Source: a candidate division WOR-3 bacterium
GTDB lineage: Bacteria > Hydrothermota > Tepidihabitantia > SM23-42 > JAOAFX01
Length of the DNA stretch: 36,997 nt
Direction: 5' to 3'
Assembly: GCA_039802325.1 (NCBI GenBank)
Contig: JBDRWH010000001.1
Span: forward strand, 1 to 36,997
The position numbers and the translations under genes were made by a program. Below the pieces are notes generated by a model that was given only the letters and a program-made list of their open reading frames with translations, ran no database searches and was not told where the DNA came from. This document shows positions 1 through 30,070 of the stretch, piece by piece (position 1 is the first letter of the stretch; each line of letters begins with the position of its first letter).

Positions 1-369
1 TTTGCCTATGCAGCAGCAGTAAGCGGTATTATGATCAGAGAGAAACCCGCAACCAATTTTCTCGTTGGAATGTTCTGGGCAGAATCTTTGATTATGGCTG
101 AGAGCGGTGCATCAACCGGTGCAATACAGATTGCCGGCACTGATGCAGTAACTCAATTACCATTCTTTATCACTGCCTGTGATTATACACTCATTGGTGA
201 GGAATTATATGCGGCAAGTGCTTATATTTCAAGAAATCCTACTTTGTTGGCAGCACTTAAAAGTCAGGATTATAGCAAATTGGTGATTGCAGGTGTGATG
301 GTCATTGCCACAATCCTCGCATTACTGAAATTGGGCATTCCAGTGTTCAATCTGTTCAATATACAGTGA
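1..369 (+). CDS. Module protein A, copy 1 (C-terminal fragment; 5' end lies outside the window); unknown function
   Basis: Frame 1 is open from base 1 (FAYAAAVSGIMIREKPATN...). It aligns colinearly with the C-terminus of the 359-aa protein at 22859..23938 (FAYVSAVDGIMVREKPATN...GEELYAASAY), roughly half identical by eye. It has a C-terminal hydrophobic helix. Confidence 0.85.
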   Translation, partial: FAYAAAVSGIMIREKPATNFLVGMFWAESLIMAESGASTGAIQIAGTDAVTQLPFFITACDYTLIGEELYAASAYISRNPTLLAALKSQDYSKLVIAGVMVIATILALLKLGIPVFNLFNIQ

Positions 370-464: not shown

Positions 465-1145
465 ATGCAAAGAAAAATACCTTTGATAATTGTTTTGATA
501 ATTGGCATTGCAATGCTTGTCCAATTCTTCATTCCCCATAAGATATCCAAAGATATATATATGAATTTTCTTGACTGGCTTGGCATCATTGCCTCATTTG
601 CGCTGGTCCTTGGATTAGGTAGTCTAATAAATCATCATGTAGACAAAATCCAGAGGAAAAGAGAACACTGGCAATTTTCCTATGTCACCCTGATTGCCAT
701 TGTAATCACTGCCATAATAGGACTATTTGGTGGAATGGAAGGAAAAGGGCCTCTACCAGTTCAACCGCAGATCATGTTGGGTGATAAACTTATCGTGATA
801 AAATACTCAATTCAGACAATTTATGAAAATATCATAACACCACTTGGCGGAACAATGTTTGCCCTCCTGGCATTCTTTATGGCTTCTGCAGCATATCGTG
901 CATTCAGGGCAAGAACATTTGAAGCGACGCTCTTACTCGTCGCAGCCTTTATCGTTATGGTTGGTGTTGTGCCGATTGGATACTATATCTCTCCAAAGCT
1001 TCCCCATCTTGCCCAGTGGATAATGGATGTGCCTAACACTGCATCAAAGAGGGGAATCCTCTTTGGTGTGGGACTTGGAGTCGCCGCCACATCATTAAAG
1101 ATTATGCTCGGTATTGAAAGAAACTGGCTTGGGGGTGGAAAATGA
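465..1145 (+). CDS. Module protein B, copy 1; polytopic membrane protein of unknown family
   Basis: AGGAAGGAGG RBS lies 5 nt upstream of the ATG. Several hydrophobic helices. Paralog of 22239..22862, sharing VDKIQRK, EAT-LLVAA-IVMVG--PIGY, WIM-VPNTA-KRGILFG and LGIER. Confidence 0.85.
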
Positions 1146-2281: not shown

Positions 2282-2902
2282 ATGAGTCATGATCCCTGGG
2301 TATGGATTGGTGCATTTTTGACCATTGGGATTCTCTCTTTTCTGTATAAAGAGAATCCATTTTATAGATTCTGTGAACATCTGTTTGTTGGTGTCGCAAA
2401 TGGTTATGCAATTGCAGTAACCTGGCATCTCATATTGACCCCAAGGCTGATTATGCCCTTACAGGGTGGAAACTACCTTGTGCTCATTCCTATGATCATT
2501 GGTTTACTATATTTCTGTAGATTCATCCCCAAATTATCCTGGCTTGTGCGGATTCCCATTGCAGTCGCTTTGGGTTTTTCGTCAGGCGTAAGCATTCCCG
2601 CAATAATACAGGCAGATGTGATTAAACAAATCCAAGGTACAGTCGTCTATCCCCATTTATTTGCCAACTGGCAACAGGGTCTGTGGGCAGTTCTGATATT
2701 CATTGGTGTTCTTGCGACGATATTCTTTTTCTTCTTCTCAAGAGAGCACAAAGGTATTCTTAAGCCGGTTTCTTATGTCGGTATTATTTTTATTATGGTG
2801 GGTTTCGGCGCATCATTCGGTTATACAGTAATGGCTCGTCTTTCTCTGTTGATTGGCAGGCTACAATTCTTATTCGGTGACTGGCTGGGAATTATCAAAT
2901 AA
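2282..2902 (+). CDS. Module protein D, copy 1; polytopic membrane protein of unknown family
   Basis: CAGGAGG RBS. Paralog of 20725..21342, sharing SFLYK-NPFY, FVGV--GY and FGASFGYTVMAR-SL-IGR. Confidence 0.85.
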   Translation: MSHDPWVWIGAFLTIGILSFLYKENPFYRFCEHLFVGVANGYAIAVTWHLILTPRLIMPLQGGNYLVLIPMIIGLLYFCRFIPKLSWLVRIPIAVALGFSSGVSIPAIIQADVIKQIQGTVVYPHLFANWQQGLWAVLIFIGVLATIFFFFFSREHKGILKPVSYVGIIFIMVGFGASFGYTVMARLSLLIGRLQFLFGDWLGIIK

Positions 2903-11558: not shown

Positions 11559-14330
11559 TTAAAATCCTAAACCAACACCGAGTCGTATCCGAAAAGGATT
11601 ATTATAGTTTGTCGGATCAAGATAGTAATCTGTTCTGGTTGCCATGTATGCTGTTTTCATTTCAGGTGGTGTAATTAAACCATCATGATTATAGTCTGCC
11701 TGTGGTGAGTATCTGGTTGAGGCAATAGTGATATTACCAAACTGGGTAAGTGTAGGTTCAGCATCACCATGGTTGTCCGGATCTCCAGTAGTAGTATAGA
11801 CGTCAATTATCTGTCTGTTATTAAAGAGATTTTCAACAAGTGCACTTATTAAGAATTTTGCCGGACCAATTTTTATCATTTTGCTTGCATTCATATCAAC
11901 ACCCCACCAGCCTGGCATTCTTGCTGAATTCTCATCACCGAGCTTGTTTCCTCTCAAGTCAACTGGTGTATAAGGATGTCCTGAATGGAATGAGAACACA
12001 AACGAAGAATTGAAGTCCTGTAAGGGTATAAAGATAAAATCGTGAGGCAATGACAGGTCAAGGTTTGCATTCACAATATTCCGCTCGTCAAAATCAAGCC
12101 AGTAATCAATGACCGGCGGTTGCAAAGGTAATCCTGTAATCGGATCATTACCACCATAGTAGAAGTCATAATAGAACTCACCTGCATAAGACGCAGTTCC
12201 TTTTGCAAATTGCAGTGTGTAACTGAGACCAAATGCCCATATAGTATTGGACATCAGTTTGTCAAGCCGGATCTCAAACCCCTTAATATTTCCGTAGTCA
12301 ACATTGAAAAACTGGAAATAAGGCATTGGCAGGGCAATGACCTGACGAATCTGTGACAGGTCGTAGACATCTTTGAAATAAGCGGTAAAGCCTAAAACCA
12401 CATCCTGGGTAAACTGATTTTCAATGCCGACTTCATACTGAACTGTCTTTTCCGGTTTCATAAAGATGTTTCCAACAATGGTATTGCCTCTTGAGAGTGC
12501 AAGCCTGATAACTGCGGTATCCGTTGTACCGAACATATCGTCCAGTGCAGGCAACTGGAAATAATGCCCGTAATTGAAACGGAATTTCATTCTTTCGGTA
12601 ACTGGCAAAGAAAAACCAATTCTCGGTGAGACCCTGTAACTCTTTTCTGCGTAACTTAGCGTATCATTCCTGGGGTCATTGGGAACTTTGTAAGTGAAAC
12701 TCTTGGGATCAAAATAATCAAACCTGAGCCCAAGCCGTGCAATCAGACCTTCAAAATCCATTTTGTCCTGGATATAAGCAGCAACTTTGTAGGGTGTCCG
12801 CTCATAGTAATCCCAGAATGGATTTGCAACCCAGGGAAGATTATTATCATAGTATTTCAGATTGTAATTCACATAGTCAATACCTGTTTTGAATTCATGA
12901 ATTTTGCCGATTGCATGGGAAACATCAAATCTCGCCTGGATATCATCATTCTGCCAGTATCTCCAGACCCGATAATCACCATAAGTGTAGAACCAGTTTT
13001 CAATTCCATAAGGATTATGCCGTAATGCGAATTCTCCGCTATTCTCATATTCAGTGTGATATTGCATTACACTATCAACGATTACATCTTTGGGCGGAAG
13101 GTCACCCGTGGTTAAATATTCTATACAATGCTCTGCCTTGAGACGATAATCAGAATACCATTGATAGTTATTATCCTGTTCCCACTCATAGTCTCTTGTT
13201 CCATAGAGACGGTCATAATGGGTCATACCTGCTTTCAGTGAAAACAGGGTTTGTGCGGTAAGCATGTAATTGAATGTTGACGAAAGTATGTAGTTTTTCG
13301 TTCGGCTCATTGGCCTATTCTGGAAATATTTCAAACTCCCTGATGACCAGGTAACATACTGATCCCGTGAATTGAATCCACTCAAGGTGACCTTACCTTT
13401 ATTATTGGGCATCGTATACGAAAGTCGTGCCTGTGCACGATAAGTATTCCTTGGTGAAGGCACTTTGTATAATGCCTCGGCATAAGCATCAGTCAAGGTC
13501 AATTCTCCAGAGAGGAAGTATTTTATTCTCTGAACCGCAGGTAGAGGACCACCCAGAGATAAATCATAAAAGTTATAACCGGTGTTCAATTTATCTTTGA
13601 CAGCATCCATGGAAAAGATTTCATCGGTGAGATAACGGAAACTACCTGATGGCTTTGTACCACCTTCTTTTGTCACCACATTGATGATGCCGGAGAGCGC
13701 ATCGCCATATTCTGCATCAAAACCACCACTGACTACTGATACTTCTTCTACCGCTGAAGCATTTATCTGGGTTGATAATGCACCTGTGTGTGGCACCTTG
13801 GTCATAATACCATCAACATAGTAAGTAACCTCTTCATTTCTGCCACCACGAATATGGGTTCCCAGATTAGAAGTTGATACACCCGCTTGTAGGGTAACGA
13901 CCTGATTGATCGTAGTCACAGGCAAACGGGCAATATCCTGAGAGGTTACTGAATGTCCACTCTGTACCTGAGAAGCGACAATTGGTGGTTTTTCAGCAAC
14001 AACCGTAACTTTTTCCACTTCAATCACCGTGGGTTTTAGCCGGAAATTCAGATTAGTGGTCTGGTCAGCATTGACAATCACCTGGGTATAAGTGTAAGGG
14101 TCATAACCCAAATATGAAGCAGTTACTACATAGGTTCCTGCAGGTACATATAGAACCACATAATCACCTTTTTCATCAGTTGCCGCACCAAGTTCTGTTC
14201 CTTCCAGAATCACATCAGCACCAATCAAAGGTTCACCGGTTTCAGCGTCCCTTACCTTACCGGTAATTTTTCCATATTCAGCGCCAAACAATAGTGCCCC
14301 GGCAAGGATTAACGCCCATAGTCTTTTCAT
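11559..14330 (-). CDS. TonB-dependent receptor-like outer-membrane protein with an N-terminal carboxypeptidase-regulatory-like domain
   Basis: GGAGG RBS and a signal peptide. GKITGKVRDAETGEPLIGADVILEG...DEKGDYVV...AGTYVVTASYLGY fits a CarbopepD_reg fold. This is followed by a plug-like region and a long beta-barrel ending ...RIRLGVGLGF. Confidence 0.75.
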   Translation of the reverse strand: MKRLWALILAGALLFGAEYGKITGKVRDAETGEPLIGADVILEGTELGAATDEKGDYVVLYVPAGTYVVTASYLGYDPYTYTQVIVNADQTTNLNFRLKPTVIEVEKVTVVAEKPPIVASQVQSGHSVTSQDIARLPVTTINQVVTLQAGVSTSNLGTHIRGGRNEEVTYYVDGIMTKVPHTGALSTQINASAVEEVSVVSGGFDAEYGDALSGIINVVTKEGGTKPSGSFRYLTDEIFSMDAVKDKLNTGYNFYDLSLGGPLPAVQRIKYFLSGELTLTDAYAEALYKVPSPRNTYRAQARLSYTMPNNKGKVTLSGFNSRDQYVTWSSGSLKYFQNRPMSRTKNYILSSTFNYMLTAQTLFSLKAGMTHYDRLYGTRDYEWEQDNNYQWYSDYRLKAEHCIEYLTTGDLPPKDVIVDSVMQYHTEYENSGEFALRHNPYGIENWFYTYGDYRVWRYWQNDDIQARFDVSHAIGKIHEFKTGIDYVNYNLKYYDNNLPWVANPFWDYYERTPYKVAAYIQDKMDFEGLIARLGLRFDYFDPKSFTYKVPNDPRNDTLSYAEKSYRVSPRIGFSLPVTERMKFRFNYGHYFQLPALDDMFGTTDTAVIRLALSRGNTIVGNIFMKPEKTVQYEVGIENQFTQDVVLGFTAYFKDVYDLSQIRQVIALPMPYFQFFNVDYGNIKGFEIRLDKLMSNTIWAFGLSYTLQFAKGTASYAGEFYYDFYYGGNDPITGLPLQPPVIDYWLDFDERNIVNANLDLSLPHDFIFIPLQDFNSSFVFSFHSGHPYTPVDLRGNKLGDENSARMPGWWGVDMNASKMIKIGPAKFLISALVENLFNNRQIIDVYTTTGDPDNHGDAEPTLTQFGNITIASTRYSPQADYNHDGLITPPEMKTAYMATRTDYYLDPTNYNNPFRIRLGVGLGF

Positions 14331-14341
14331 TGCACACCTCC

Positions 14342-15376
14342 TTAATTAACCCTGATGGGTATAAGCCAGAATCTTGCTAATAATGGACTGGCAGGAGTTA
14401 CATAGTAGAATCCATCGGTCACAATTGCTTCAATCACGAGATTTTTCACACCTGTACCAGAAATTCCAATTTTTCCTGAACCATCAGGCAATTGAATTTT
14501 CTTGCCATCCTGAATCGCAAAGAATGTGCAGAGATCACTTGTAATTGTTCCAGAAAGCGTAAGAGTAATGGTCACGGAATCTCCCGCACTGTATTCCAGA
14601 AGTGAATCTATTGCGCAGAAGCGGTTCATCGCATGATGTTGATATAGGGTATCAGTATTACTTGCCCAGACCGTATCAACCTTTGAAGTATTTTGAGAAG
14701 TCAAAATTGCAGTGTAAATATATGGAATACTCGCAGCACGGTTTGGCAATCCATAATTGCCATATGAAATTCTTTTCAAGACCCATTCTCTTGGTTCTTT
14801 AATCTTGTCCACTGAATCGCCCAGTTCTTCATCCCATACTTTTTCTTTCACAGGTTCTACATAGAGATGGCGCAGACCTTCAACAGTTATTGTATCATAA
14901 GAATAATAGCCACCTGCTGTTTCTACTATTACGGTATCAAGTTTCTTTCCTGTATCACCCTGCCAGAAATAATAACCTTTGTACAAAGCATCATAATGGA
15001 CCTCCTGTATCAGGTTAAATGTATCACGAAGATACACTGTGCAGGTCGTATCTTTTGTATACCAGAGGTCCTTAAAACGGGAACTTGATGCAATCTTGTC
15101 ACGCAGACTATCCACATGCTGTTTGACAAGCACTGATTCAGTTTTGAAGTATGAATCTGCTACTGGAAATGTAACAGCAGCAAGTGTAACAGGAATGTAA
15201 CTGTCTAAAAATATGTCATCGGTCTTAAGAAATTCCGCATGTCCATCAAGTACAGCATTGATCAATGTGTCATCTCTTGGTGTCCCGTCATAGAAACCTT
15301 CTGGTGGCTCATTACCACAATTAACAAACACTAACGCCAATGTTGCTAATAGGCAAAGCCAGTTCATCTTGTTCAT
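14342..15376 (-). CDS. Secreted protein, possibly a lipoprotein, of unknown function (344 aa)
   Basis: AAAGGAGG RBS. Signal peptide MNKMNWLCLLATLALVFVNCG has a Cys at position 20, but the lipobox is non-canonical. The stop lies 11 nt upstream of the receptor gene. Confidence 0.6.
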   Translation of the reverse strand: MNKMNWLCLLATLALVFVNCGNEPPEGFYDGTPRDDTLINAVLDGHAEFLKTDDIFLDSYIPVTLAAVTFPVADSYFKTESVLVKQHVDSLRDKIASSSRFKDLWYTKDTTCTVYLRDTFNLIQEVHYDALYKGYYFWQGDTGKKLDTVIVETAGGYYSYDTITVEGLRHLYVEPVKEKVWDEELGDSVDKIKEPREWVLKRISYGNYGLPNRAASIPYIYTAILTSQNTSKVDTVWASNTDTLYQHHAMNRFCAIDSLLEYSAGDSVTITLTLSGTITSDLCTFFAIQDGKKIQLPDGSGKIGISGTGVKNLVIEAIVTDGFYYVTPASPLLARFWLIPIRVN

Positions 15377-15467
15377 TTATGCCTCCTTTGCTTTATTTCA
15401 TTATTTTTTTCCAGCCTGTTTTTTGTTTTTATTTCTCACCCCCTTTTTCCTACAATATTCTATTTAT

Positions 15468-15495
15468 ATTATATTAAAAAAGGAGAACTTGTCAA
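15468..15495 (-). promoter_or_regulatory. Sigma70-type promoter of the lipoprotein/receptor/cargo/PorV operon: TTGACA-N16-TATAAT
   Basis: Minus strand has cccTTGACA at 15495..15490 and TATAAT at 15473..15468. A purine-rich leader of about 91 nt ends in AAAGGAGG. Confidence 0.6.
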
Positions 15496-15501
15496 GGGTG
15501 A

Positions 15502-16110
15502 TTATTTGAATTTGAATTCTATCTTTCTGAAAACCCAAACCCTGACAAGTTTATCCCGTTGTTTTGCTGGAGTAAATCTATATTTCCAGACGCTTGCCAC
15601 TGCTGCTTCATCAAGAAGTTGATTACCACTGGATTTGACAACCTGGACATCAATTACACTGCCATCTATATTTACCAGAAATTTTACCTGGAGACTTCCT
15701 TCAATCCCTGCCCTTTTTACCAGTTCTGGCCATTCAGGCGGTGGCATTGATATGGGTTGTGGTTTTACCTCTACTTTAAAATATGGAACCACTTCAATCT
15801 CAGGACCCGTAGGCTGGGTTCTTATTATGTCTTCCCGGAATTCGGTTGCTGCAATTGTTTCAACTGCTTCTTCAGCAACTTCAGTTGCGGCTGCTGCCAC
15901 TGCCACCTTTGGCCTTTCCACCGGTGGTGGCTCTTCGTATTTTTCTATCTCAGCTGAGATTTGCTCAACCATTGTTACAATCTCTTTCCTTAATTTATAG
16001 GGTTCAACTTCAGCATACGGCAAGAATAGAAACAACAAAATCAGAATGATTATGCCCAGAAGCATACCGGTGCGGAAATATACACCATACATCAATTTAT
16101 GGTCGCGCAT
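15502..16110 (-). CDS. tonB: Energy transducer TonB (N-terminal TM, Pro/Glu-rich linker, TonB C-terminal domain)
   Basis: I place the start at ATG 16110, with GGAGG 5 nt upstream inside the last codons of exbD; the track's 16134 start is a TTG. TM helix, then EEPPPVERPKV linker. The C-terminal segment PEWPELVKRAGIEGSLQVKFLVNIDGSVIDVQVVKSSGNQLLDEAAVASVWKYRFTPA is typical of TonB_C. Confidence 0.8.
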   Translation of the reverse strand: MRDHKLMYGVYFRTGMLLGIIILILLFLFLPYAEVEPYKLRKEIVTMVEQISAEIEKYEEPPPVERPKVAVAAAATEVAEEAVETIAATEFREDIIRTQPTGPEIEVVPYFKVEVKPQPISMPPPEWPELVKRAGIEGSLQVKFLVNIDGSVIDVQVVKSSGNQLLDEAAVASVWKYRFTPAKQRDKLVRVWVFRKIEFKFK

Positions 16111-16111
16111 A

Positions 16112-16531
16112 TCAACCTCCAAATTCAGTGGCAAAAGTTATCTTAAATGCTCGGGCTTCCTTCAATTGGTCAAGGACAACATCCACAATACCATACTCAA
16201 TATTTTCATCAATGTTCAAAATTGTAACCAGTTCCGAATTCTCAGCAATCTTCGGAATCATTTTTGTACTCACCCTTTCTTTTGGAACCAAACTATCATC
16301 AATAAACACCCTGCCGTTACTATCAACCCAGACATGGGTGATGTTTCTTCGGATCAAAATCCTTTCTGTTGATTTTGCCTTTGGCAGGACAAGTTTAAGA
16401 TTAAGCGCAGTTGCCCTGAACACGGTAGTCACCATAAAGAAAAGAATCAACAAAAATGCAACATCAGCAGTTGATGCAGTGGGAATATCCGGGGTTTTTG
16501 TAAACCTTCTTATAATACTTTTGCGCATCAT
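16112..16531 (-). CDS. exbD: ExbD/TolR-family biopolymer transport protein (second copy)
   Basis: Single N-terminal TM (ADVAFLLILFFMVTTVF) followed by a periplasmic domain. ATGA overlap with the upstream exbD. Confidence 0.8.
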   Translation of the reverse strand: MMRKSIIRRFTKTPDIPTASTADVAFLLILFFMVTTVFRATALNLKLVLPKAKSTERILIRRNITHVWVDSNGRVFIDDSLVPKERVSTKMIPKIAENSELVTILNIDENIEYGIVDVVLDQLKEARAFKITFATEFGG

Positions 16532-16992
16532 TCCTCACTGGTTGGTATCAAACTTATCTTATTTGCCCTCAACTCCCTGCCATCCTGGGTAACAACCCTG
16601 CACAGTTTTATCTGGTCAAGTACTGAAATCATTGCCTGATATCTTGCATCCTTACTTGTCCTCAATGAAACTACAAGCAAGGTATCCCGTTCAAGAAGTT
16701 TCTCTTCAACTATTCTGCGCACCTCAGAGTATTGCTGTGGAGAGATATCAATTCCGTCATATCCTGAAGCCCTTAATTTCAGTGCCCCTTCAGGATTGAT
16801 CAAGATTGAAACAACATTTTCAGGTTTTACTTTTGTCTCAGTCTGAGATTTTTCAGGCAGGAGCATTTTAATACCTTTTTCCCGGGTAAACACTGTGGTG
16901 GTCATAAAGAAAATGATTATCAGAAACGCAATATCACCCATTGAGGCAGTCGGAATGATTGCATTTATTTTTTTCTTTGCCCTCAACTCCAT
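16528..16992 (-). CDS. exbD: ExbD/TolR-family biopolymer transport protein (first copy)
   Basis: Motif MGDIAFLIIIFFMTTTVF plus a periplasmic domain. Directly abuts the exbB stop. Confidence 0.8.
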   Translation of the reverse strand: MELRAKKKINAIIPTASMGDIAFLIIIFFMTTTVFTREKGIKMLLPEKSQTETKVKPENVVSILINPEGALKLRASGYDGIDISPQQYSEVRRIVEEKLLERDTLLVVSLRTSKDARYQAMISVLDQIKLCRVVTQDGRELRANKISLIPTSEE

Positions 16993-17616
16993 CTATTTTT
17001 TCCTTTTCTGATAATGCTCAATCATATAGTCAATCAAACCTGCAGCAACTTCTTCCATATCCTTTGTGTATCCATCAACTTTACCAGAAAAGAGAATATG
17101 CAATATTGCAAGCGGGGTTGCGATAATCAAACCCCATTTGGTCGTAATCAATGCCTCAGAGATACCGCTGGCAACGATTGTCGGTTCAACCTCACCTGCT
17201 GCTGCTATTGCTGCGAAAGCACGAATCATGCCGGTAACCGTGCCTAAAAATCCAAGGAAGGGAGCGACCGTGGTCAAACCCGCTAACAAAGCCATCCCCC
17301 GGTCCAAAAATCCCAATTCAATTGCTGCAGCACGGGCAGCAACTTCTTCCATTGCATCCTTACCTTTATCTGCCTTTTGCAGAATTTCCTTGGCAATTTT
17401 TGCAGCCGGAGATGGTGTATGGTCACACAGCGCAATACCAGCATCAACACCCTGGGCATCAATTGTGGAAACGAGTTTTTCCAAGAAGCTCTTTGGATTT
17501 AATCTTATTTTTATCAAAAGTGAAAAAAGACGCTCAAGTATTATGCCCAATGCCAGTATAATGCACACCAATAATAGCCACATTACACCGCCACCAATTG
17601 AAAATTCCCTAACCAT
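16993..17616 (-). CDS. exbB: MotA/TolQ/ExbB-family proton channel protein
   Basis: AAGGAGG RBS. Three TM helices. The conserved C-terminal core LAGLTTVAPFLGFLGTVTGMIRAF...GISEALITTKWGLIIA is typical of ExbB/TolQ. Confidence 0.85.
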   Translation of the reverse strand: MVREFSIGGGVMWLLLVCIILALGIILERLFSLLIKIRLNPKSFLEKLVSTIDAQGVDAGIALCDHTPSPAAKIAKEILQKADKGKDAMEEVAARAAAIELGFLDRGMALLAGLTTVAPFLGFLGTVTGMIRAFAAIAAAGEVEPTIVASGISEALITTKWGLIIATPLAILHILFSGKVDGYTKDMEEVAAGLIDYMIEHYQKRKK

Positions 17617-17674: not shown

Positions 17675-18025
17675 TCATTTTGAACTTGCACTATAATAGA
17701 GAATACCCCCAATAAGCGGGAAAAGACCCGCACCAAAAAACAGAAAACTCTCATACCGTGCAAGCGCAAGAGAACGGACAATCAAATCAAAAATGTCACC
17801 TGGACCAGCAACGCTCAGAAGCGGAAAGTAAAAGACAATACGGTATATATGGAACACTGCCACCGCAATCAGGAATACACAACCGATCACAGGGAAAATC
17901 CATATTCCTTTACCACCGATCAAATTCAACAATCTTTTCAGAATTAGACCAAAAATAATTAAAGAAACAATGGCGAGCAATATTGCCACCATAAAGATAA
18001 TTTCTGCCAAAATATCAGCCCTCAT
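17675..18025 (-). CDS. Small integral membrane protein (116 aa, about 4 TM), unknown function
   Basis: AGGAGG RBS and a uniformly hydrophobic helical sequence. Last gene of the module-2 operon. Confidence 0.6.
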   Translation of the reverse strand: MRADILAEIIFMVAILLAIVSLIIFGLILKRLLNLIGGKGIWIFPVIGCVFLIAVAVFHIYRIVFYFPLLSVAGPGDIFDLIVRSLALARYESFLFFGAGLFPLIGGILYYSASSK

Positions 18026-18047
18026 GAGACCTCCTATTTAGAAAATT

Positions 18048-18102
18048 GAAGTTAAGAAGTTCTGAAGTTATGTGGTTATGAACCTTGGAACTTCCTAACT
18101 TC
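18048..18102 (-). repeat. 15-bp-stem hairpin (GAAGTTAGGAAGTTC / GAACTTCTTAACTTC on the minus strand) between the two small membrane-protein genes
   Basis: The arms at 18048..18062 and 18088..18102 have one G-U position in the minus-strand RNA and enclose a 25-nt loop. One arm overlaps the stop codon of 18101..18469. The arm sequence resembles GGAAGTTAGAAGTT at 395..408. Confidence 0.65.
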
Positions 18103-18469
18103 ATTTTCCTTTGGTTACTCCATAAAATCTCAAGTTTGCTACAAGCGAAAGGATTCCTGAGAGGAAGAACAAGCCATAAGCAAGGTAATTTATTCCACCC
18201 TTTGGAAGCATCATTTTTCCACCAATGCCGCAGAATATTAATTGAATCAATGCAAAAAGCAGAATGCCAGTAGGTGCAATCATCATAAACTGCCAGTTTG
18301 TCTTTTCCCCAAGCACAATCTCATACCTGCGGGCAATTATGCCTAAAAAAATAAAAGCAAGCCATAGCAGTACCGCACCAAGAACTAACACATAGTTCGG
18401 GAAAATTGCCAGTGCTTGATATGTAGAAGGCTCAATCCCGAATGGTGCGGAAAATAGAATCAATTCCAT
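18101..18469 (-). CDS. Small integral membrane protein (122 aa, about 4 TM), unknown function
   Basis: AAGGGGG RBS-like sequence upstream and four hydrophobic segments. Confidence 0.6.
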   Translation of the reverse strand: MELILFSAPFGIEPSTYQALAIFPNYVLVLGAVLLWLAFIFLGIIARRYEIVLGEKTNWQFMMIAPTGILLFALIQLIFCGIGGKMMLPKGGINYLAYGLFFLSGILSLVANLRFYGVTKGK

Positions 18470-18489
18470 AAAACCCCCTTTTTCTCAAA

Positions 18490-19077
18490 TCATTTCAGTT
18501 TTCCTAAAAGCTTATTCGTGAGATCTTTGCCCTTGGTTGGTCCGATAATCATACCTGCTGCCTTGCCCAGGGCAAAAATGAATCTTCTTATATCTTCTTC
18601 ATAAAGTTCATCCGCTTTGATTCTTTGGGCCTTGAGTTGATTTTGATATACCCTCTCAGTAAAATCACCTAAATAATCCTGGACAACTGCTTTCAGTTGA
18701 TCAAGAAACTCTGGTGCAAATCTCTCTTTTGGTTTTTCTGCTTCAACAACCTCTACCTTTTGCTTAGCTCTAATCTCTTTAATTGCGTTCCAGATAGTAT
18801 CCAGAATTTGCGCCTGGGTTGTAGCATAAATGTGTCCAATCAGTTCATTTTCAGCAATATCACAAACCAGGCTCTGGTTATTTCCAACAATTTCAATAGT
18901 ATCAATCTTAACATCACCCACTGCACCGATGGATTCAAAAAGTACTGTTCCGGTCTGCGAAAACTTTGTCTTTTTCTGTTCACCACCCTTAGAAGTGATT
19001 GTCTCTCCATCTTTCATTACGATAAAAGGCAAACCCAGCCCTCGTTCTTCAATCTTATTCAGTATCTCTTCATTCAT
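18490..19077 (-). CDS. Cytoplasmic protein with a possible Roadblock/LC7-like N-terminal domain, charged linker and helical C-terminal domain
   Basis: AAGGAGG RBS. Same overall layout as the upstream gene: an alpha/beta N-domain (...LPFIVMKDGETITSKG...), a KQKVEVVEAEKPKE linker and a helical tail. The Roadblock assignment is weaker than for 19089..19874. Confidence 0.45.
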   Translation of the reverse strand: MNEEILNKIEERGLGLPFIVMKDGETITSKGGEQKKTKFSQTGTVLFESIGAVGDVKIDTIEIVGNNQSLVCDIAENELIGHIYATTQAQILDTIWNAIKEIRAKQKVEVVEAEKPKERFAPEFLDQLKAVVQDYLGDFTERVYQNQLKAQRIKADELYEEDIRRFIFALGKAAGMIIGPTKGKDLTNKLLGKLK

Positions 19078-19088
19078 CTCTTACCTCC

Positions 19089-19874
19089 TTATATCTGCTT
19101 CATCTTTTCAATTACTGCCTGGACTTTTACCCTTGCTTGAGATGATCCCATTTCCTCAACTGCCTTCTTAACAAGAAAGTCAATCACCGTACGCAGTATC
19201 TGCACAATATCATCTTCTTTTTCAGATGGTGGAGTTTGTTTAAACTCTATTTTTTCGCCAATAATACCTATCATTGGCAATATTTCAGTGGCAATCACGC
19301 CAAGACCCTGATTAAGAATACCAAGCCAGTGCTCTTTTTTTCCGCCACTTCCAAATTCCTCAATCAGTAAGTTTATCTGGGTCAATTTTGAATTGATACT
19401 CCTGGACAATTGAATTTCGACCTTTGGAGGTACTACTGAAGGTTTTTCCGCTTCAACGACTTTTTCTTCAACTACCTTCTCCTCAACTTTTTCCTCAACA
19501 ATTTTGACTTCAGGTTCTTTCTCCACCTTCTCTTCTATCTTCTCCTCTTTGACTTTCTCCTCTTTTACCGGCAGAAGTTGTTCCTTAATCCTTTCAATAA
19601 TATCCAGGGGTTTTTCATCCCTTACCACCTCAACCCCGAGGTATTTACCGTTATGAAAAAAAATTATTAGACGATTTGCTCCATAACACATAGAAACAAA
19701 TTTTATTTCACCTAAATTCAGTGTATTCTTTATCACCTCGGCAGCCGAGGAGAAAAAGGCGGTAAGGTCACCAAGGGGTGAAGTTGATGAACCCTTGACT
19801 TTTTCAATTGAACCATCCTCGGCATTGACCACTGCATAGTTAATAATTCCTGGAATCTTATCCAATATTTCCAT
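19089..19874 (-). CDS. Roadblock/LC7 (MglB-like fold) domain protein with an (EEKV)n linker and helical C-terminal domain
   Basis: AAGGAG RBS. The N-terminus ILDKIPGIINYAVVNAEDGSIEKVKG...LTAFFSSAAEVIKN...ANRLIIFFHNGKYLGVEV fits the Roadblock/LC7 pattern (L--iPGv--a-vv--dG-i). Residues 103-145 are a Glu/Lys/Val repeat. Confidence 0.6.
   Translation of the reverse strand: MEILDKIPGIINYAVVNAEDGSIEKVKGSSTSPLGDLTAFFSSAAEVIKNTLNLGEIKFVSMCYGANRLIIFFHNGKYLGVEVVRDEKPLDIIERIKEQLLPVKEEKVKEEKIEEKVEKEPEVKIVEEKVEEKVVEEKVVEAEKPSVVPPKVEIQLSRSINSKLTQINLLIEEFGSGGKKEHWLGILNQGLGVIATEILPMIGIIGEKIEFKQTPPSEKEDDIVQILRTVIDFLVKKAVEEMGSSQARVKVQAVIEKMKQI
19440..19568 (-). repeat. In-frame low-complexity coding repeat encoding a Glu/Lys/Val-rich (EEKV)n linker
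   Basis: Residues 103-145 of the Roadblock-like protein are VKEEKVKEEKIEEKVEKEPEVKIVEEKVEEKVVEEKVVEAEK. Confidence 0.8.
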
Positions 19875-19887
19875 TCCCGACTCCTTT

Positions 19888-20724
19888 CTATTTTAATCCA
19901 GTACGGAGCTCATCAATCTTCTTCTTAAACAACAATTTTCCGTAAAGCTGTGGACCTTCGCTATTTACGAATTGCTCAAATTTTCTTCTGAAGCTATCAA
20001 TCTGATCCTGAGTCAATGGATTTTGCAAACCAACCTCTAAGGTTTCTTCATCCACTCTTAACGCTGAACCCAATGATTGATTTTCTGGTTCCATTTCACA
20101 CCATCTCTTGTACCAGTTCAATCCATTTTTTCCGAATGTTCTGAAAAAGACATTGAAATAACGGATCAAGACCGCCATCAATCTTTCTGCCTCTTTTGGG
20201 TCATAGATAAGACCCTGTTCTTTAAGCCAGATAATGGTCTTTATTGTTTCATAACCGCCTAATTGTGATTGGCTAATGATTTCATTTAATGTTCTCTTGC
20301 CGTCAACCATTGCCAGAACCTGCCAGTCTGTACGCCGCAGTGCAACTGCAGAAGGTAATTCTTTTGTTGATTTTGCTAAGACTGCGTCTCGTGGTGGCAG
20401 GCGGTCCTTGATTTTCTCAAATTCAACACGCCTCTTTTCAATATTTTCGTTTAGCTTTCCTACATCTTCAGAGATTGTCTGCTCGTTTGTCCTTACCCCT
20501 GACTCAAATGTAGCATGGTCAAGTCGGGCAAGAGAAAGATTTAGGAGTGATTCAAATCCCTTTTCCAGGCCATCAGTGGCATGTACAATATATCCTTCCT
20601 TGACATATATCTCACCACTCAATTCTCCGCTCACCCTTATTAGACCGGTTTTCTTTAACTGCACGAGAAAACTCAATAAATCAGAAACACTAAATTCCTT
20701 TAAATTGATTTCAATATCAGCCAT
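19888..20724 (-). CDS. DUF4388 (PatA-N-like) domain protein
   Basis: The ATG directly follows the TAA of module gene D2 (TAAATG). The N-terminus LKEFSVSDLLSFLVQLKKTGLIRVSGELSGEIYVKEGYIVHA matches the DUF4388 signature (L--f-l-dllq-l----ktG-L-v-----g-i-f-~G-iv-A). Confidence 0.65.
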   Translation of the reverse strand: MADIEINLKEFSVSDLLSFLVQLKKTGLIRVSGELSGEIYVKEGYIVHATDGLEKGFESLLNLSLARLDHATFESGVRTNEQTISEDVGKLNENIEKRRVEFEKIKDRLPPRDAVLAKSTKELPSAVALRRTDWQVLAMVDGKRTLNEIISQSQLGGYETIKTIIWLKEQGLIYDPKEAERLMAVLIRYFNVFFRTFGKNGLNWYKRWCEMEPENQSLGSALRVDEETLEVGLQNPLTQDQIDSFRRKFEQFVNSEGPQLYGKLLFKKKIDELRTGLK

Positions 20725-21342
20725 TTATATTGCTCCTAACCAATTGTGCAAAAGAAAATATATTCTACCGATAAACAGCGAGACACGAGCCATAACTGTA
20801 TAGCCGAAAGATGCACCAAACGATACCATCATAAACCAGATACCGATCTTTGCACCGATACCTAAAGCACCTCGGTGCTCTTTGGAAAAATAGAAATAGA
20901 GAAGAGTGAAGATTACACCAAGGATAATCAGCATATTGGAGAATGTAGAAAAAACAGACATATTTGTCAAAGGCAGGAATGTTGCCTGTAACTGCGGGAA
21001 AATATCGCCCTGGATTATCTGAGTAATAGATACTGCCATTGCTATACCCATGGTAAATGTGAGTGGAATGCGAATCATCCATGATATCCTGGGGATGAGT
21101 GGAGCGAACATCAAAAAACCTATGAAAATAGGAAAGATATTATACCATTGCCCTCTCTGGAATAAGGGCTCAAAAAGATTGGGCCAGGCAAAATCATACC
21201 AGAGCACAACTGCCCAGTATCCTGCAGAAACACCAACAAAAATATTCTCGGCGATCTTGTAAAAAGGATTATCTTTATACAAAAATGAATATATCGCTAA
21301 GGTTAATAGGGCAGCAATCCATATACCAATCGTGCTTATCAT
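20725..21342 (-). CDS. Module protein D, copy 2; polytopic membrane protein of unknown family
   Basis: Paralog of 2282..2902. ATGA overlap with C2, and its stop abuts the DUF4388 gene start. Confidence 0.85.
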   Translation of the reverse strand: MISTIGIWIAALLTLAIYSFLYKDNPFYKIAENIFVGVSAGYWAVVLWYDFAWPNLFEPLFQRGQWYNIFPIFIGFLMFAPLIPRISWMIRIPLTFTMGIAMAVSITQIIQGDIFPQLQATFLPLTNMSVFSTFSNMLIILGVIFTLLYFYFSKEHRGALGIGAKIGIWFMMVSFGASFGYTVMARVSLFIGRIYFLLHNWLGAI

Positions 21343-22160
21343 TTCTTTCTCCTCTGGGAAACCAATATCACATTGCCAAGCACAATGAACCCAACAAGAA
21401 GAAGGTGAACAATAGACTGAGCATCCATTCCTCTCAATCCTCTGCCTTTCCTATTTACGAGTGTCTCATATTCTGCAGCACCTTTTAATCCACCTAAAAG
21501 CCCAACTAACTGTCCTGAGCTCAAATATGCATATTGTTGCGGTGCCATAATCGCGGTTGTTGCCCCGCAAATTGGCACTCCATACCGGGCGTGGAAATAG
21601 ATTATCCAGTGTAGAATACCAGGATCACCAGCAGAAAAGGTCATTACTGCCTTAAGATCCTTTGCTGATTTTACTGCCCTGCCCAAAGCAAAAGAGTCTA
21701 TGGGGATACCTTGATAATCAACTTTTATTACATCCGAAAAATTGCGTCCCAGACTCAAGAGCATTACTGCACCACCAGGTCTATAACCAACATTGATATA
21801 GTCCTCACCATATTTTTTGTCATAAATTTGAGCAAGGTTGTTAAGTGCAATATTCCCAAGTTCACTACCAGCAGGCCATAAGCCCATCATATATATTCTT
21901 AAGTTCTTACGAAAACAATGTTCAATCACTGCCTCAGTTGCGGGATAGAGTTCTGCCTCACTACCTGGGTCGTAATCAGTGGAAATAAGTACTATAGAAC
22001 CGCTGGGTAATGACTCAATCTTATTGTAGACATTTTTGACCGGTTTTGTAATATCAACCGGTAAATTCAATGGTACAATCATTGGAATGATAACTGCCAG
22101 TGCAACAAGAAGAAAAATAATCCTGCGGTCAAGATGACTCAACCTTTCAATGAGATTCAT
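21339..22160 (-). CDS. Module protein C, copy 2; bitopic protein with a soluble central domain
   Basis: Paralog of 1240..2103 with TM helices at both ends. Confidence 0.85.
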   Translation of the reverse strand: MNLIERLSHLDRRIIFLLVALAVIIPMIVPLNLPVDITKPVKNVYNKIESLPSGSIVLISTDYDPGSEAELYPATEAVIEHCFRKNLRIYMMGLWPAGSELGNIALNNLAQIYDKKYGEDYINVGYRPGGAVMLLSLGRNFSDVIKVDYQGIPIDSFALGRAVKSAKDLKAVMTFSAGDPGILHWIIYFHARYGVPICGATTAIMAPQQYAYLSSGQLVGLLGGLKGAAEYETLVNRKGRGLRGMDAQSIVHLLLVGFIVLGNVILVSQRRKK

Positions 22161-22195
22161 GAAACCGCCGCTCCCGGGAAAACCTTATAGTTTAT

Positions 22196-22239
22196 GAATT
22201 CGGATTCATTTGAAATTTGCAATTTGAAATTTGGAATCC
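22196..22239. promoter_or_regulatory. Tandem 12-nt direct repeat ATTTGAAATTTG x2 (14-nt period) flanked by inverted GGATTC/GAATCC in the B2-C2 spacer
   Basis: Repeats at 22208..22219 and 22222..22233, each containing the near-palindrome AAATTT. Flanks are at 22202..22207 and 22234..22239. Confidence 0.4.
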
Positions 22240-22862
22240 TAATGTTCACCTCCTCCCATATAACTCCTTTCAATTCCCAGCAGAACGCGCAACGCCATTG
22301 ATATTAATCCTAAGTCAATGCCAAACAAGATACCCCGCTTCGCAGCAGTATTCGGAACCTGCATTATCCACTCAACAAGGTCAGGGAATTTGTGCCAGAT
22401 TGAATAACCGATAGGAATCCTGCCAACCATCACAATCACCGCAGCGACAAGAAGCATTGTCGCTTCGGGTGTCTTTGCCCTGAAAGCCCTGAATGACGCT
22501 GAGGCAACAAAAAAAGCAAGCAAAGAAAACATGGTCGCCCCAAGTGGAACCTGAAAATTTTCAAAGAAGTACAAAAACACTCTTGAATCCCTGCCACCGA
22601 CAAACCCGGTACCAAGCATAATGCCGAGAAAGGATAGTAGAACTATGCTGTATTGCCAATCCCGTAATTTGCGTTGAATCTTATCAACATTTATTCTTAT
22701 TAAATTAAAGATTCCAATAAAGACAAAAAACGCAGCAACGCCCTGATACCACAACTGAAGCAGTTGAGAACTATCCTGGGCAAATTTTGCAGGAATAAAA
22801 AAAGTTATCAGCATATAGAAACCACAACAGAACACAATTATTAAAGGTATAATTGTTTTCAT
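22239..22862 (-). CDS. Module protein B, copy 2; polytopic membrane protein
   Basis: Paralog of 465..1145. ATGA overlap with A2. Confidence 0.85.
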   Translation of the reverse strand: MKTIIPLIIVFCCGFYMLITFFIPAKFAQDSSQLLQLWYQGVAAFFVFIGIFNLIRINVDKIQRKLRDWQYSIVLLSFLGIMLGTGFVGGRDSRVFLYFFENFQVPLGATMFSLLAFFVASASFRAFRAKTPEATMLLVAAVIVMVGRIPIGYSIWHKFPDLVEWIMQVPNTAAKRGILFGIDLGLISMALRVLLGIERSYMGGGEH

Positions 22863-23938
22863 TCTATCGTATTAAAGATATTAACAAAAAATTGCCAGTT
22901 TAATATCTGGCTAAAAACCCCGATGATTATAACACTAATGAATATCAGTTTCCCGAGATCTTGTCCTTTCAGTGATCCTAACTGGACTGGTTCTTGAGAA
23001 AGATAAGCACTTGCTGCATACAATTCTTCACCCAGGAGCGTAAAATCACAGGCTGCTACAAAAAATGGTAGTTGATCAGGCATTGCAGTGCCCGCAATCT
23101 GAACTGCACCTGTCGAATGACCGGTTTCAGCAAGAATCAGTGATTCAGCATAAAAGGTGCCAAGGTATAAATTTGTTGCTGGCTTTTCACGAACCATAAT
23201 ACCATCCACTGCTGATACATAGGCAAATTGGTCGTCTGTTATATAACGGATGTTATCTGAATTATACCAATCAGAACGACCAGTTCTGGTCGCTGACTCT
23301 TTCACAACCTGTTGTGCCATAGTCATTGCCATTGAATGGCAGGTTGGTACATATAAAGGTGTACCGTATTCTGCAGTCTTCTCAGCAACTCTTGACAGAA
23401 TACTCATTGAGGCAATCGTCTGAGGGTCATCAATATCCATGATTCCCGGCACATACAAAACAGGTTTACCCATTTCAGTTGCCCTGCCAATTGCCTCTTC
23501 AATGGCACTGAGCGCTGGTATCTTTCTGATAAACAGTTTACCACCCTTCTTCGCCTGGCTTATGTAGAAAAGAACTGATGCGAAAAGGACCATCATACAT
23601 ATTGCCAGAGGCAGGCGATATAGGTTAAAATATTGAATAACAGGTTTTACAGGACCAACAAGGTTGGAAAAAACGGCATTGGAATCAGTCATACCAGCGA
23701 TCCGGTAATAGTAACCTGCACCGGGCATTAAATTGTAATCCTGATATGTATACTCAGAACCCTCAATCTCACCAATTTTTTCAAAAATCCCTTCTGGTTC
23801 AACTCCCCTGAATATTTCGATAACTCTATAGTGATTGTCAAGTTGCCAGTTTAGAGTAATGCTTGAACCATCATCATTGGGCGTGTCCAAAGCCCGCAAA
23901 TTGATGCTATATATAATATATAGTGCAACTGAAAACAT
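22859..23938 (-). CDS. Module protein A, copy 2 (full length, 359 aa): N-terminal FN3-like domain, TM helix, roughly 210-aa soluble domain, C-terminal TM helix
   Basis: The N-terminal LDTPNDDGSSITLNWQ...GAGYYYRI resembles FN3-like surface modules. TM helix is LPLAICMMVLFASVLFYI. The C-terminal third is paralogous to 1..369. A promoter sits immediately upstream of the ATG. Confidence 0.8.
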   Translation of the reverse strand: MFSVALYIIYSINLRALDTPNDDGSSITLNWQLDNHYRVIEIFRGVEPEGIFEKIGEIEGSEYTYQDYNLMPGAGYYYRIAGMTDSNAVFSNLVGPVKPVIQYFNLYRLPLAICMMVLFASVLFYISQAKKGGKLFIRKIPALSAIEEAIGRATEMGKPVLYVPGIMDIDDPQTIASMSILSRVAEKTAEYGTPLYVPTCHSMAMTMAQQVVKESATRTGRSDWYNSDNIRYITDDQFAYVSAVDGIMVREKPATNLYLGTFYAESLILAETGHSTGAVQIAGTAMPDQLPFFVAACDFTLLGEELYAASAYLSQEPVQLGSLKGQDLGKLIFISVIIIGVFSQILNWQFFVNIFNTIE

Positions 23939-23944: not shown

Positions 23945-23972
23945 ATTTTACTCAAAATAATTGCAATGTCAA
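23945..23972 (-). promoter_or_regulatory. Sigma70-type promoter of the module-2 operon: TTGACA-N16-TAAAAT, with the ATG 6 nt after the -10
   Basis: Minus strand has TTGACA at 23972..23967 (overlapping the GT2 stop codon) and TAAAAT at 23950..23945, then TATTAG, then ATG at 23938. Confidence 0.55.
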
Positions 23973-24766
23973 GCGTTTATTTTACGCCATTTTTTGAAAT
24001 ACTTGATTGCACTTATCAAATGGAACCAGAAGAATTTGTTAAATAGTAGGTCAACTCCTTTTGTTCTTGCTGACCATCTGGGATATTGATGAAGAAATTT
24101 TGCCCCGGGGAAATAGATAACTCTAAACCCGTGATTTTGAAAACGGCGACACCAATCAACATCTTCAAAATACAGAAAAAATCTCTCATCCATAAAACCG
24201 ATTTTTTCTATCAAAGATTTTTTTGTCATCATTGCAGCTCCTAATACCCAATCCACTTCCCTTGTCATTTGATGATCAAAATCCAGCATCAGATACCTTA
24301 TAAGTTCTTTTTTCCCAAAAGATAGATTTTTTAAACAGGTTCGTCTTATAAAAGGTGTCCAGATTTTTGGAAAACGCAAACAAGAATTTTGAATTGTATG
24401 GTCATAATTCAGCATTTGTGGTGCCAGGATACCAATGTTTTTCTCTTGTTCAAAAAACGAAATCATTTTTCCAATTGCGCCCGAAATGATTTGAATATCG
24501 GGATTGATGATCAAAATGTATTCTCCACGAGCATTTTTTATCCCTTGATTCACGGCTCGAGCATAGCCGAGGTTCGTCTGGTTTTCTACTAATAACAACT
24601 TCAAAAATTGTTGATATTCTGTAACCAAATGCCCCAATGAAAATGTTGTAATATTGTTAACAATGATAACTTCAGCATCAGATTCTGACAACACTATCCT
24701 AAGATTTTCCAGACAATTTCTTAAAACGTAGACTGGATTGTAGTTAACAATTACTACTGAAATCAT
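23969..24766 (-). CDS. Family 2 glycosyltransferase
   Basis: MISVVIVNYNP start, NLGYARAVNQG, a DxD-like region (INPD) and FFLYFEDVDWCRR are all typical of GT2. The start is uncertain: ATG 24766 is preferred over the track's TTG at 24787. Confidence 0.75.
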   Translation of the reverse strand: MISVVIVNYNPVYVLRNCLENLRIVLSESDAEVIIVNNITTFSLGHLVTEYQQFLKLLLVENQTNLGYARAVNQGIKNARGEYILIINPDIQIISGAIGKMISFFEQEKNIGILAPQMLNYDHTIQNSCLRFPKIWTPFIRRTCLKNLSFGKKELIRYLMLDFDHQMTREVDWVLGAAMMTKKSLIEKIGFMDERFFLYFEDVDWCRRFQNHGFRVIYFPGAKFLHQYPRWSARTKGVDLLFNKFFWFHLISAIKYFKKWRKINA

Positions 24767-25418: not shown

Positions 25419-25436
25419 AATCTTGAATCTATGTTC

Positions 25437-27122: not shown

Positions 27123-27143
27123 TTTTCCCTCACAAGAAAATCT

Positions 27144-30034: not shown

Positions 30035-30039
30035 ATTAA

Positions 30040-30067: not shown

Positions 30068-30070
30068 GAA

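Follow-up and report, generated by a model that had tools for sequence, protein, structure and literature searches.

A four-gene membrane-protein module of mostly uncultured bacteria, present twice in a candidate division WOR-3 contig, as a candidate envelope transport complex

Introduction

Some TonB-dependent uptake systems have a dedicated inner-membrane importer, such as the ATP-binding cassette (ABC) importers of the FhuBCD and BtuCDF type. Here we describe a module of four membrane-protein genes, A, B, C and D, which occurs twice in a contig of 36,997 bp from a metagenome-assembled genome (MAG) of candidate division WOR-3; this entire contig is referred to below as the window. As in the FhuBCD and BtuCDF systems, a putative inner-membrane multi-subunit module lies beside a TonB-dependent receptor and ExbB/ExbD/TonB, its outward receptor part diverges fast while the cytoplasmic part is conserved, and an ATPase is adjacent in some lineages. 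ABCD differs from these systems in lacking an ABC ATPase, any ABC permease family and a two-lobed binding protein; a GlmL-like protein of the ASKHA type is the candidate ATPase, and the periplasmic domain of C is single-lobed and anchored by two transmembrane (TM) segments. No ABC_tran or permease family was detected in A to D or in further members of the B and D families.

Other described complexes were also compared. Na+-NQR and Rnf resemble ABCD in having two opposed 6-TM subunits of approximately 200 aa and a subunit with an anchored periplasmic domain, and some ABCD loci include a neighbour that is similar to the N-terminal part of NqrA/RnfC; however, ABCD lacks sequence similarity to these complexes and their cofactor motifs, and both the fold of C and the gene order differ. 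The family of the Rnf/Na+-NQR 6-TM subunits (PF02508) matched none of 25 B and 24 D members at E ≤0.5, and neither the FMN_bind domain of RnfG/NqrC nor RnfD/NqrB was found, C being Rossmann-like and A matching DUF6754 only. The Wzz polysaccharide co-polymerases share the topology of C, and polysaccharide genes are present nearby in the window, but C has a compact α/β sheet rather than a long helical hairpin, and the Wzz/GNVR signal is absent from C and present in an unrelated gene (27144-29519). Pfam and NCBIfam gave no match of any subunit, or of the B and D members, to TRAP, TTT or PTS-mannose systems (DctQ/DctM, TctA/TctB, EII-C/EII-D), and the family of the MotA, ExbB-ExbD and TolQR stators (PF01618) matched only neighbouring genes at 16112-17616 and not A to D. 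The only family memberships that hold are those of A, which is a clear member of Pfam DUF6754, an entry silent on function and partners, and which carries a fibronectin type III (FN3) domain by both sequence profile and fold.

Three of the four families thus have no Pfam or NCBIfam entry, and the fourth is a DUF. A literature search for DUF6754, PF20539, PF13941 and PATAN returned nothing on a four-gene module, and no paper found mentioned DUF6754 or PF20539. The host phyla, hardly or not at all represented in culture, are dominant in many anoxic sediments, digesters and hot springs, and the function of the module is currently invisible in metabolic reconstructions of these lineages. We consider ABCD to be a widespread putative membrane complex of a categorically new kind, although B and D, compared with the PDB by sequence profiles while the structure models are those of C and A, may be remotely related in structure to a known transporter fold. 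Our tentative reading is that the four proteins assemble in the inner membrane as one hetero-oligomer, a complex of a kind not described before, for which transport is the most likely function.

Results and Discussion

Two colinear copies of the module in one window

The two modules and the parts of their products are as follows.

A1, 22859..23938, minus strand: 359 aa; signal peptide, FN3 domain, TM, cytoplasmic region, TM; DUF6754 at residues 102-354
A1 FN3 domain, 23639..23905, minus strand: residues 12-100; predicted periplasmic/extracytoplasmic
A1 small α/β part, 23204..23548, minus strand: residues 131-245; predicted cytoplasmic; motifs GRATEMGKPV and TDDQF
A1 semi-hydrophobic helical region, 22964..23203, minus strand: residues 246-325; motifs FYAESLILAETG, IQIAGTA, QLPFFVAACD and GEELYAASAYLS
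B1, 22239..22862, minus strand: 207 aa; 6 TM, both termini predicted inside
C1, 21339..22160, minus strand: 273 aa; TM, periplasmic six-stranded Rossmann-like domain, long helix ending in TM
C1 Rossmann-like domain, 21459-22046, minus strand: residues 39-234
D1, 20725..21342, minus strand: 205 aa; about 6 TM, N-terminus predicted outside
A2, 1..369, plus strand: C-terminal fragment (122 aa) of another DUF6754 protein, which the contig start truncates
B2, 465..1145, plus strand: 226 aa; paralog of B1
C2, 1240..2103, plus strand: 287 aa; paralog of C1
D2, 2282..2902, plus strand: 206 aa; paralog of D1

An initial annotation of this DNA, made by eye, had proposed two colinear A-B-C-D copies on opposite strands, and all eight open reading frames (ORFs) were recovered in that arrangement. 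The paralogy of the copies, which it had put at 35 to 55 % identity, was confirmed by BLASTP, with identities of 58.3 % over 120 aa for A1 and A2 (E 8e-47), 48.2 % over 226 aa for B1 and B2 (E 1.5e-67), 32.6 % over 288 aa for C1 and C2 (E 7.5e-58) and 46.3 % over 203 aa for D1 and D2 (E 4e-60). The conserved strings that it quoted (VDKIQRK, EAT.LLVAA.IVMVG, KRGILFG, SFLYK.NPFY, FGASFGYTVMAR and GLKGA.EYE) are all present in the translations. No similarity was detected by BLASTP across the four families, the best pair being B1 and D2 at E 0.26. In module 1, A1 and B1 overlap by 4 nt, as do C1 and D1, and D1 abuts the next gene. Exact protein matches of window genes carry locus tags of the form ABIL20_000xx, and a homologue 100 % identical to A1 is annotated in a WOR-3 MAG. 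The window contains no tRNA or Rfam element.

The same annotation had called the four families unrecognised. This description holds for B, C and D but not for A, which matches DUF6754 (PF20539), a family without an assigned function. Its failure to place the proteins in a characterised complex was borne out: Pfam and NCBIfam searches of all eight proteins gave DUF6754 only.

The four genes are inherited and duplicated as a unit

A profile of A was searched against one genome per GTDB species, and at least 592 stretches were confirmed; the search for A homologues gave at least 8,000 candidates. Locus-level counts refer throughout to the best 80 of these stretches, all of them from MAGs, in which B, C and D were sought by phmmer with the window's own B, C and D proteins. 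The A-B-C-D order is kept in these 80 loci wherever the contig permits, so that the expectation of co-occurrence beyond this genome was correct, and 100 modules have B, C and D all present in that order. There are 46 single modules and approximately 27 arrays of two or three; 17 of the arrays are ABCDABCD, several have a third copy, and one is a convergent pair like that of the window. Incomplete modules lie nearly all at contig ends, and in two others the ORF search had missed B or there was no ORF-level match. The loci come from Zixibacteriota, WOR-3, Cloacimonadota, Fermentibacteria/Aegiribacteria, Latescibacterota, Coatesbacteria, Stahlbacteria, Edwardsbacteria, Poribacteria, Acidobacteriota and unclassified bacteria, giving a spread over at least 10 phyla, mostly uncultured. 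No cultured organism was found among the best matches of two A queries.

Module types keep a fixed rank within arrays (in the Zixibacteria type the order is group 3, group 1, group 8), which indicates that the duplications are old and that the copies have differentiated. Module 1 of the window groups with modules that lie between transketolase and Zincin_1 genes in Eisenbacteria-like MAGs, while module 2 groups with a second WOR-3 type, which in four other loci is followed by a Wzi-like outer-membrane protein.

The four families are therefore inherited and duplicated strictly as a unit. An alternative is that the four membrane proteins act independently and that their genes are simply inherited side by side. 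The failure to find any natural fusion of A to D genes would be compatible with this idea. It is, however, difficult to reconcile with an order and completeness kept in 100 modules and at least 10 phyla through repeated whole-module duplications, or with the 4-nt gene overlaps, while flanking genes vary freely, and we regard it as very improbable.

Two irregular loci were noted. A Zixibacteriota locus (CP070824.1) has an A homologue by tblastn yet no A to D ORFs by phmmer, a discrepancy that may come from frameshifts or masked sequence. An apparent C-D fusion of 550 aa, from a Zixibacteria assembly of long reads (locus L087, 11908-13560), was rejected: it lacks the C-terminal TM of C and is an out-of-frame read-through, and is most likely an indel or frameshift artefact rather than a natural fusion.

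Subunit A combines an FN3 domain with a nearly invariant helical region

A1 matches PF20539 from TM1 to TM2 with 391 bits, against a gathering cut-off of 27 (E 2.5e-117), and A2 matches it with 185 bits (E 1.8e-54). A short signal peptide and an FN3 domain precede DUF6754. The FN3-like module had already been recognised by eye, and this assignment is supported by a PDB profile match to titin FN3 (E 2e-9) and by Foldseek (probability 1.00, rmsd 2-3 Å), the domain being modelled by AlphaFold with a per-residue confidence (pLDDT) of 84-92. PF00041 is precomputed on A homologues, of which 106 of 110 have one FN3 domain and 3 of 110 have two. Both Foldseek with the A model and a search of the A profile against all PDB sequences returned FN3 matches only.

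The segment that follows TM1 is predicted to be cytoplasmic because it is strongly K/R-rich, with 4.7 K+R per 15 residues immediately after TM1. It begins with a small α/β part (residues 131-245), for which AlphaFold gives the helix/strand pattern and in which 28 of 115 columns are invariant over the 38 sequences used to compute column conservation; its GRATEMGKP motif, read from the alignment, does not match the Walker A motif (G-x4-GK[ST]). No other part of the system is as strongly conserved as the residues that follow, 246-325 (41 of 80 columns invariant, mean column conservation 0.90), which have a mean hydropathy of 0.5-0.9. The AlphaFold monomer has four short helices here, with a pLDDT below 55, and TM2 follows. 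This region probably re-enters the membrane or forms an interface with B and D. Its poor monomer model would fit a segment packed against partner proteins within or at the membrane. Proteins of approximately 1,000 aa that appeared to be long forms of A, in loci L055 and L074, proved to be ORF over-extensions in high-GC DNA.

Subunit C has a fast-diverging Rossmann-like domain predicted in the periplasm

The AlphaFold model of C1 (pLDDT 89.8, predicted TM-score 0.86) has an N-terminal TM, then a six-stranded Rossmann-like α/β domain (residues 39-234) and lastly a long helix whose end forms the second TM. As both termini are K/R-rich, and so predicted to be cytoplasmic, the domain is placed in the periplasm. 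The invariant residues (D62, D64, E70, G125/P128, G178, T202, K226, E230 and E232) map to predicted loops after β-strands, which are the usual ligand site in Rossmann-like folds, and the outer domain has conserved acidic and glycine-rich loops. C1 and C2 had no match in Pfam, NCBIfam or a profile search of PDB sequences. The C family comprises 4,850 representatives at 50 % identity (E ≤1e-3), and no Pfam domain was found on C homologues among the matches listed from a collection of 5.8 billion proteins. The C model gave generic Rossmann folds only in a Foldseek search of the PDB, the best of these weak matches being GT-B halves, all at a TM-score ≤0.35.

Some C homologues depart from this layout. 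Two (P0255 and P0335) have inserts in the periplasmic domain near position 112-118, of approximately 560 aa with CARDB or approximately 345 aa of HEAT repeats, and a third (P0288) has a duplicated domain in place of an insert. Between paralogs of the same locus the median identity is 64 % for the cytoplasmic region of A, 48 % for B, 46 % for D and 40 % for C, and falls to 30 % for FN3, the fastest-evolving part. Together, this gradient and the C inserts suggest that the outward-facing parts diversify while a cytoplasmic and membrane core is held fixed.

Subunits B and D are polytopic and of opposite predicted orientation

B is predicted to have 6 TM with both termini inside, as the N-terminus and the even-numbered loops have K+R counts of 1.8, 4.6 and 2.9. 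By the same positive-inside counts D has approximately 6 TM with the N-terminus outside and an ambiguous C-terminus; some D homologues have one extra N-terminal TM. The view that A and C are bitopic and that B and D are polytopic, also taken from the initial annotation, is backed by hydropathy, by the AlphaFold models of A and C and by these counts. B and D of the window have no Pfam or NCBIfam match; a Pfam scan of the 25 B and 24 D members gave hydrophobic noise only (for example, TMD0_ABC and 7TMR-DISM), and searches of both profiles against all PDB sequences gave no match. The alignments contain no invariant cysteine in either family, and every database name for B, C and D is 'hypothetical protein'. 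Comparisons by hhalign of A with C and of B with D, for internal repeats in B or D, and of the A helical region with B or D all gave probabilities below 7 %; the idea of an inverted AB/CD duplication thus has topology as its sole basis.

A candidate transport complex and the evidence for and against it

We infer an obligate physical complex from the strict synteny, the 4-nt overlaps and the complementary topologies, which are predicted to place domains on both membrane faces around two polytopic subunits; transport, its direction and its energy source are likewise inferred. A transporter is ranked first because the module has two polytopic subunits together with the invariant semi-hydrophobic helical region of A, because its periplasmic side is receptor-like and diverges fast, because it is repeatedly paired with outer-membrane barrels and TonB machinery, and because an ATPase is adjacent in several phyla and modules are multiplied. 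Expansion to two or three paralogous modules per locus is common in uptake systems. The conservation gradient may be likened to that of binding-protein-dependent importers, and the binding-type modules (CARDB, HEAT) inserted in the outer domain of some C members would support a transporter.

In such a system ABCD would be the inner-membrane stage of a trans-envelope pathway that includes outer-membrane barrels. A substrate would be received by the fast-evolving, outward-facing parts, the FN3 domain of A and the periplasmic Rossmann-like domain of C. In several lineages a TonB-dependent receptor, to which the adjacent ExbB/ExbD/TonB supply energy, would let this substrate through the outer membrane. 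The translocation path would be formed by B, D and the nearly invariant semi-hydrophobic helical region of A, while the cytoplasmic α/β part of A would couple this path to cytoplasmic partners. These may be a GlmL-like ASKHA ATPase and an RnfC/NqrA-N-like protein in Zixibacteria, Fermentibacteria and Acidobacteriota, and a PATAN protein with small proteins in WOR-3. An ATPase partner for the module is plausible.

Several observations weigh against a transporter. No transporter family or fold and no internal inverted repeat was detected in B or D by Pfam, PDB sequence profiles or hhalign, and the helical region of A, which is key to the proposed path, has a low-confidence model. Within 6 kb, most loci lack both a TonB-dependent receptor and ExbB, the WOR-3 operon contains no ATPase, and some contexts are those of central metabolism (transketolase, 2-oxoacid:ferredoxin oxidoreductase). 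A Pfam census of 148 immediate neighbours found no family enriched beyond those named in this report. The fixed rank of module types would be explained as well if several modules cooperated within a single larger machine, and the FN3, CARDB and HEAT modules point to macromolecular partners rather than small solutes. This fixed rank in arrays and the outward position of macromolecule-binding-type modules fit none of the readings considered here cleanly.

A wider proposal, which we regard as doubtful, would make ABCD the core of a bacterial envelope transporter or energy-coupling machine of a new class, with folds unrelated to those of ABC, major facilitator superfamily, TRAP, Rnf-Nqr or stator proteins. 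Such a core, perhaps an ancient inverted pair (A+B versus C+D), would be driven in several phyla by an ASKHA-type (GlmL-like) rather than an ABC/P-loop ATPase, and would act as up to three cooperating modules per cell in Zixibacteria, WOR-3, Cloacimonadota, Fermentibacteria and relatives. If ABCD is indeed a transporter with a non-ABC, ASKHA-type energiser, it would represent a new architectural class of membrane transport. The abundance and conservation of the complex make a core physiological function likely, such as nutrient uptake, envelope assembly or energy coupling in diderms. Strict synteny and the thousands of available sequences make the module approachable by co-evolution analysis, multimer prediction and cryo-electron microscopy.

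A TonB cluster lies between the two modules

The genes of the window that follow module 1 are listed here; those of the TonB cluster were assigned from Pfam matches.

WOR-3-specific accessory genes, 17675..20724, minus strand: five genes just downstream of D1
PATAN/DUF4388 protein, 19888-20724, minus strand: PF14332, E 5.6e-9; abuts D1 with no gap
261-aa protein, 19089-19874, minus strand: fold of no assigned kind
195-aa protein, 18490-19077, minus strand: fold of no assigned kind
122-aa small membrane protein, 18101-18469, minus strand
116-aa small membrane protein, 17675-18025, minus strand: between the 122-aa gene and ExbB; conserved in a WOR-3 contig (locus L083, 8315-8665)
TonB cluster, 11559..17616, minus strand
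ExbB, 16993-17616, minus strand
ExbD, two genes, 16528-16992 and 16112-16531, minus strand
TonB, 15502-16134, minus strand
344-aa uncharacterised protein, minus strand: between the TonB and receptor genes
TonB-dependent receptor with N-terminal CarboxypepD_reg domain, 11559-14330, minus strand

Beyond the receptor are a 987-aa protein, a PorV/FadL-like outer-membrane protein and two proteins with type IX secretion system (T9SS) tails. Both modules of the window flank this cluster of TonB, receptor and T9SS-cargo genes, with module 2 converging from the other side. The association recurs elsewhere: the subfamily of the window receptor is encoded directly after D in 8 loci of other phyla, as in Fermentibacteria/Aegiribacteria and two other MAGs, and the full-length copies match the window receptor with E values of 1e-86 to 1e-91. 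In three of those loci ExbB follows the receptor within the fetched flank, and ExbB lies within 6 kb of ABCD in 10 loci from three or more lineages. A sigma-70 consensus (TTGACA-16-TATAAT, 12/12) at 17644-17671 on the minus strand, just upstream of ExbB, suggests that the TonB cluster is transcribed separately from ABCD and the accessory genes.

Accessory genes and a possible signalling role

The set from the PATAN to the 122-aa gene also follows ABCD in five other loci (L031, L043, L071, L082 and L083) of WOR-3 and Stahlbacteria. By eye, the 261-aa and 195-aa proteins had seemed to be paralogous and roadblock/LC7-like, but Pfam, PDB profiles and hhalign gave no support for this idea. The WOR-3 accessory genes showed no homology to the GlmL-like, CL1, CL2 and CL6 set that accompanies the module elsewhere.

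These neighbours raise the question of whether ABCD is a signalling, polarity or motor platform that senses the periplasm and recruits PATAN or ASKHA proteins, serving, for example, TonB/ExbBD-type motors, surface motility or type IX secretion. PATAN regulators are reported to interact with the type IV pilus motor of cyanobacteria (bioRxiv 10.1101/2021.06.11.447907). A PATAN gene that abuts D1 and recurs together with three to four small genes in WOR-3 and Stahlbacteria would be in keeping with such a platform, as would ExbB/ExbD downstream of the module in three lineages and the T9SS cargo and PorV/FadL-like outer-membrane protein in the window. However, no kinase, receiver, GTPase or DNA-binding output accompanies the module, the roadblock-like identity of the two small proteins is unsupported, and the accessory genes are lineage specific whereas ABCD is universal. 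Moreover, two 6-TM subunits with many invariant small and polar residues suit a conduit better than a sensor. We therefore consider a signalling role unlikely.

An ASKHA ATPase and an RnfC/NqrA-like protein in other lineages

A trio of genes, CL2, GlmL-like and CL1, flanks ABCD in 23 of the 80 loci, from Zixibacteria, Fermentibacteria, Acidobacteriota and others (for example, L006 at 2297-5804, L078 at 2538-5899 and L020 at 1452-5239, with 20 further loci), and is absent from the window. The trio, which is itself uncharacterised, encodes a 135-aa protein, a 617-aa GlmL/MutL-like ASKHA ATPase and a 374-aa protein. The ATPase matches PF13941 (E 1e-126), has intact DxGSTxTK and DIGGATTD motifs and carries an extra C-terminal region of approximately 110 aa. 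CL1, the 374-aa protein, has an N-terminal barrel-sandwich hybrid domain that matches Biotin_lipoyl in 10 of 12 members, RnfC_N in 5 of 12 (best E 3.9e-5) and NQRA_N in 3 of 12; there was no other Pfam match, and its profile gave no match in the PDB. In an Acidobacteriota MAG the CL1 gene overlaps A by 4 nt.

The position of CL1 beside A in these 23 loci bears on whether ABCD could be an ion-translocating energy converter with a layout like that of Rnf or Na+-NQR and with several modules cooperating. The RnfC_N and NQRA_N matches of CL1, the size and opposite orientation of B and D (approximately 205 aa and 6 TM each), the membrane-anchored periplasmic domain of C, the fixed rank of module types and the energy-metabolism genes upstream of the module in one Zixibacteria locus would all agree with this proposal. 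On the other hand, the Rnf-Nqr, NQR2_RnfD_RnfE and FMN_bind models match no member, B and D have no invariant Cys and no Fe-S or flavin motifs were found, the Rossmann-like domain of C is not an FMN_bind fold, homology between B and D is undetectable, and the barrel-sandwich domain is widespread and non-specific. An energy converter is thus improbable, and for the transporter that we favour the trio would instead supply cytoplasmic partners.

Polysaccharide genes upstream of the module and the possibility of export

A GT2 glycosyltransferase gene lies 30 nt upstream of A1, and a cluster with Wzz/tyrosine-kinase, Wza-like and PMT_2 genes is present farther upstream. One explanation for these genes would be that ABCD is an exporter in envelope biogenesis, which moves a polymer or lipid (capsule, exopolysaccharide, a lipid-linked intermediate or lysophospholipid) outward while FN3 and the C domain handle the periplasmic product. 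The Wzi-like outer-membrane protein encoded after D in four WOR-3 loci would be consistent with export, as would the arrangement in Cloacimonadota, where an ABC ATPase is encoded upstream of the module and an AMP-binding, acyl-ligase-like enzyme directly downstream. C has the TM-periplasmic domain-TM topology of polysaccharide co-polymerases, and GT-B halves are its top Foldseek matches. However, these weak matches do not exceed a TM-score of 0.35, C has neither a Wzz or GNVR signal in Pfam nor a Wzz fold match, and polysaccharide genes are not enriched among the 148 immediate neighbours. A promoter-like site also separates GT2 from A1:

Promoter-like site TTGACA-16-TAAAAT, 23945..23972, minus strand: 11/12 consensus; ends 6 nt before the A1 ATG; a consensus match only

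Export consequently seems rather unlikely to us, and uptake through an inner-membrane complex remains the reading we tentatively prefer. No Shine-Dalgarno sequence is visible before A1, which, together with the position of the promoter-like site 6 nt from the ATG, indicates that the module mRNA may be leaderless.

Other genes of the window

The region upstream of module 1 (24744-36214) contains housekeeping as well as polysaccharide genes, encoding rsmG/GidB, MazG, PSP1, the Wzz-GNVR tyrosine-kinase-type protein (gene 27144-29519), the Wza-like exporter, a methyltransferase, IMP dehydrogenase and the PMT_2 glycosyltransferase. A 407-aa protein in this region has weak PHP hints only.

Secreted and outer-membrane genes occupy positions 3054-8573 on the minus strand. 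One product, of 535 aa, carries a T9SS C-terminal sorting domain. A second, of 904 aa, has LVIVD repeats, a C39-like peptidase domain and a weak T9SS-tail match (E 0.006) that falls short of the Pfam cut-off. The third, an outer-membrane protein of 370 aa, matches UPF0164 and has further, weak matches of the FadL/PorV-like kind.

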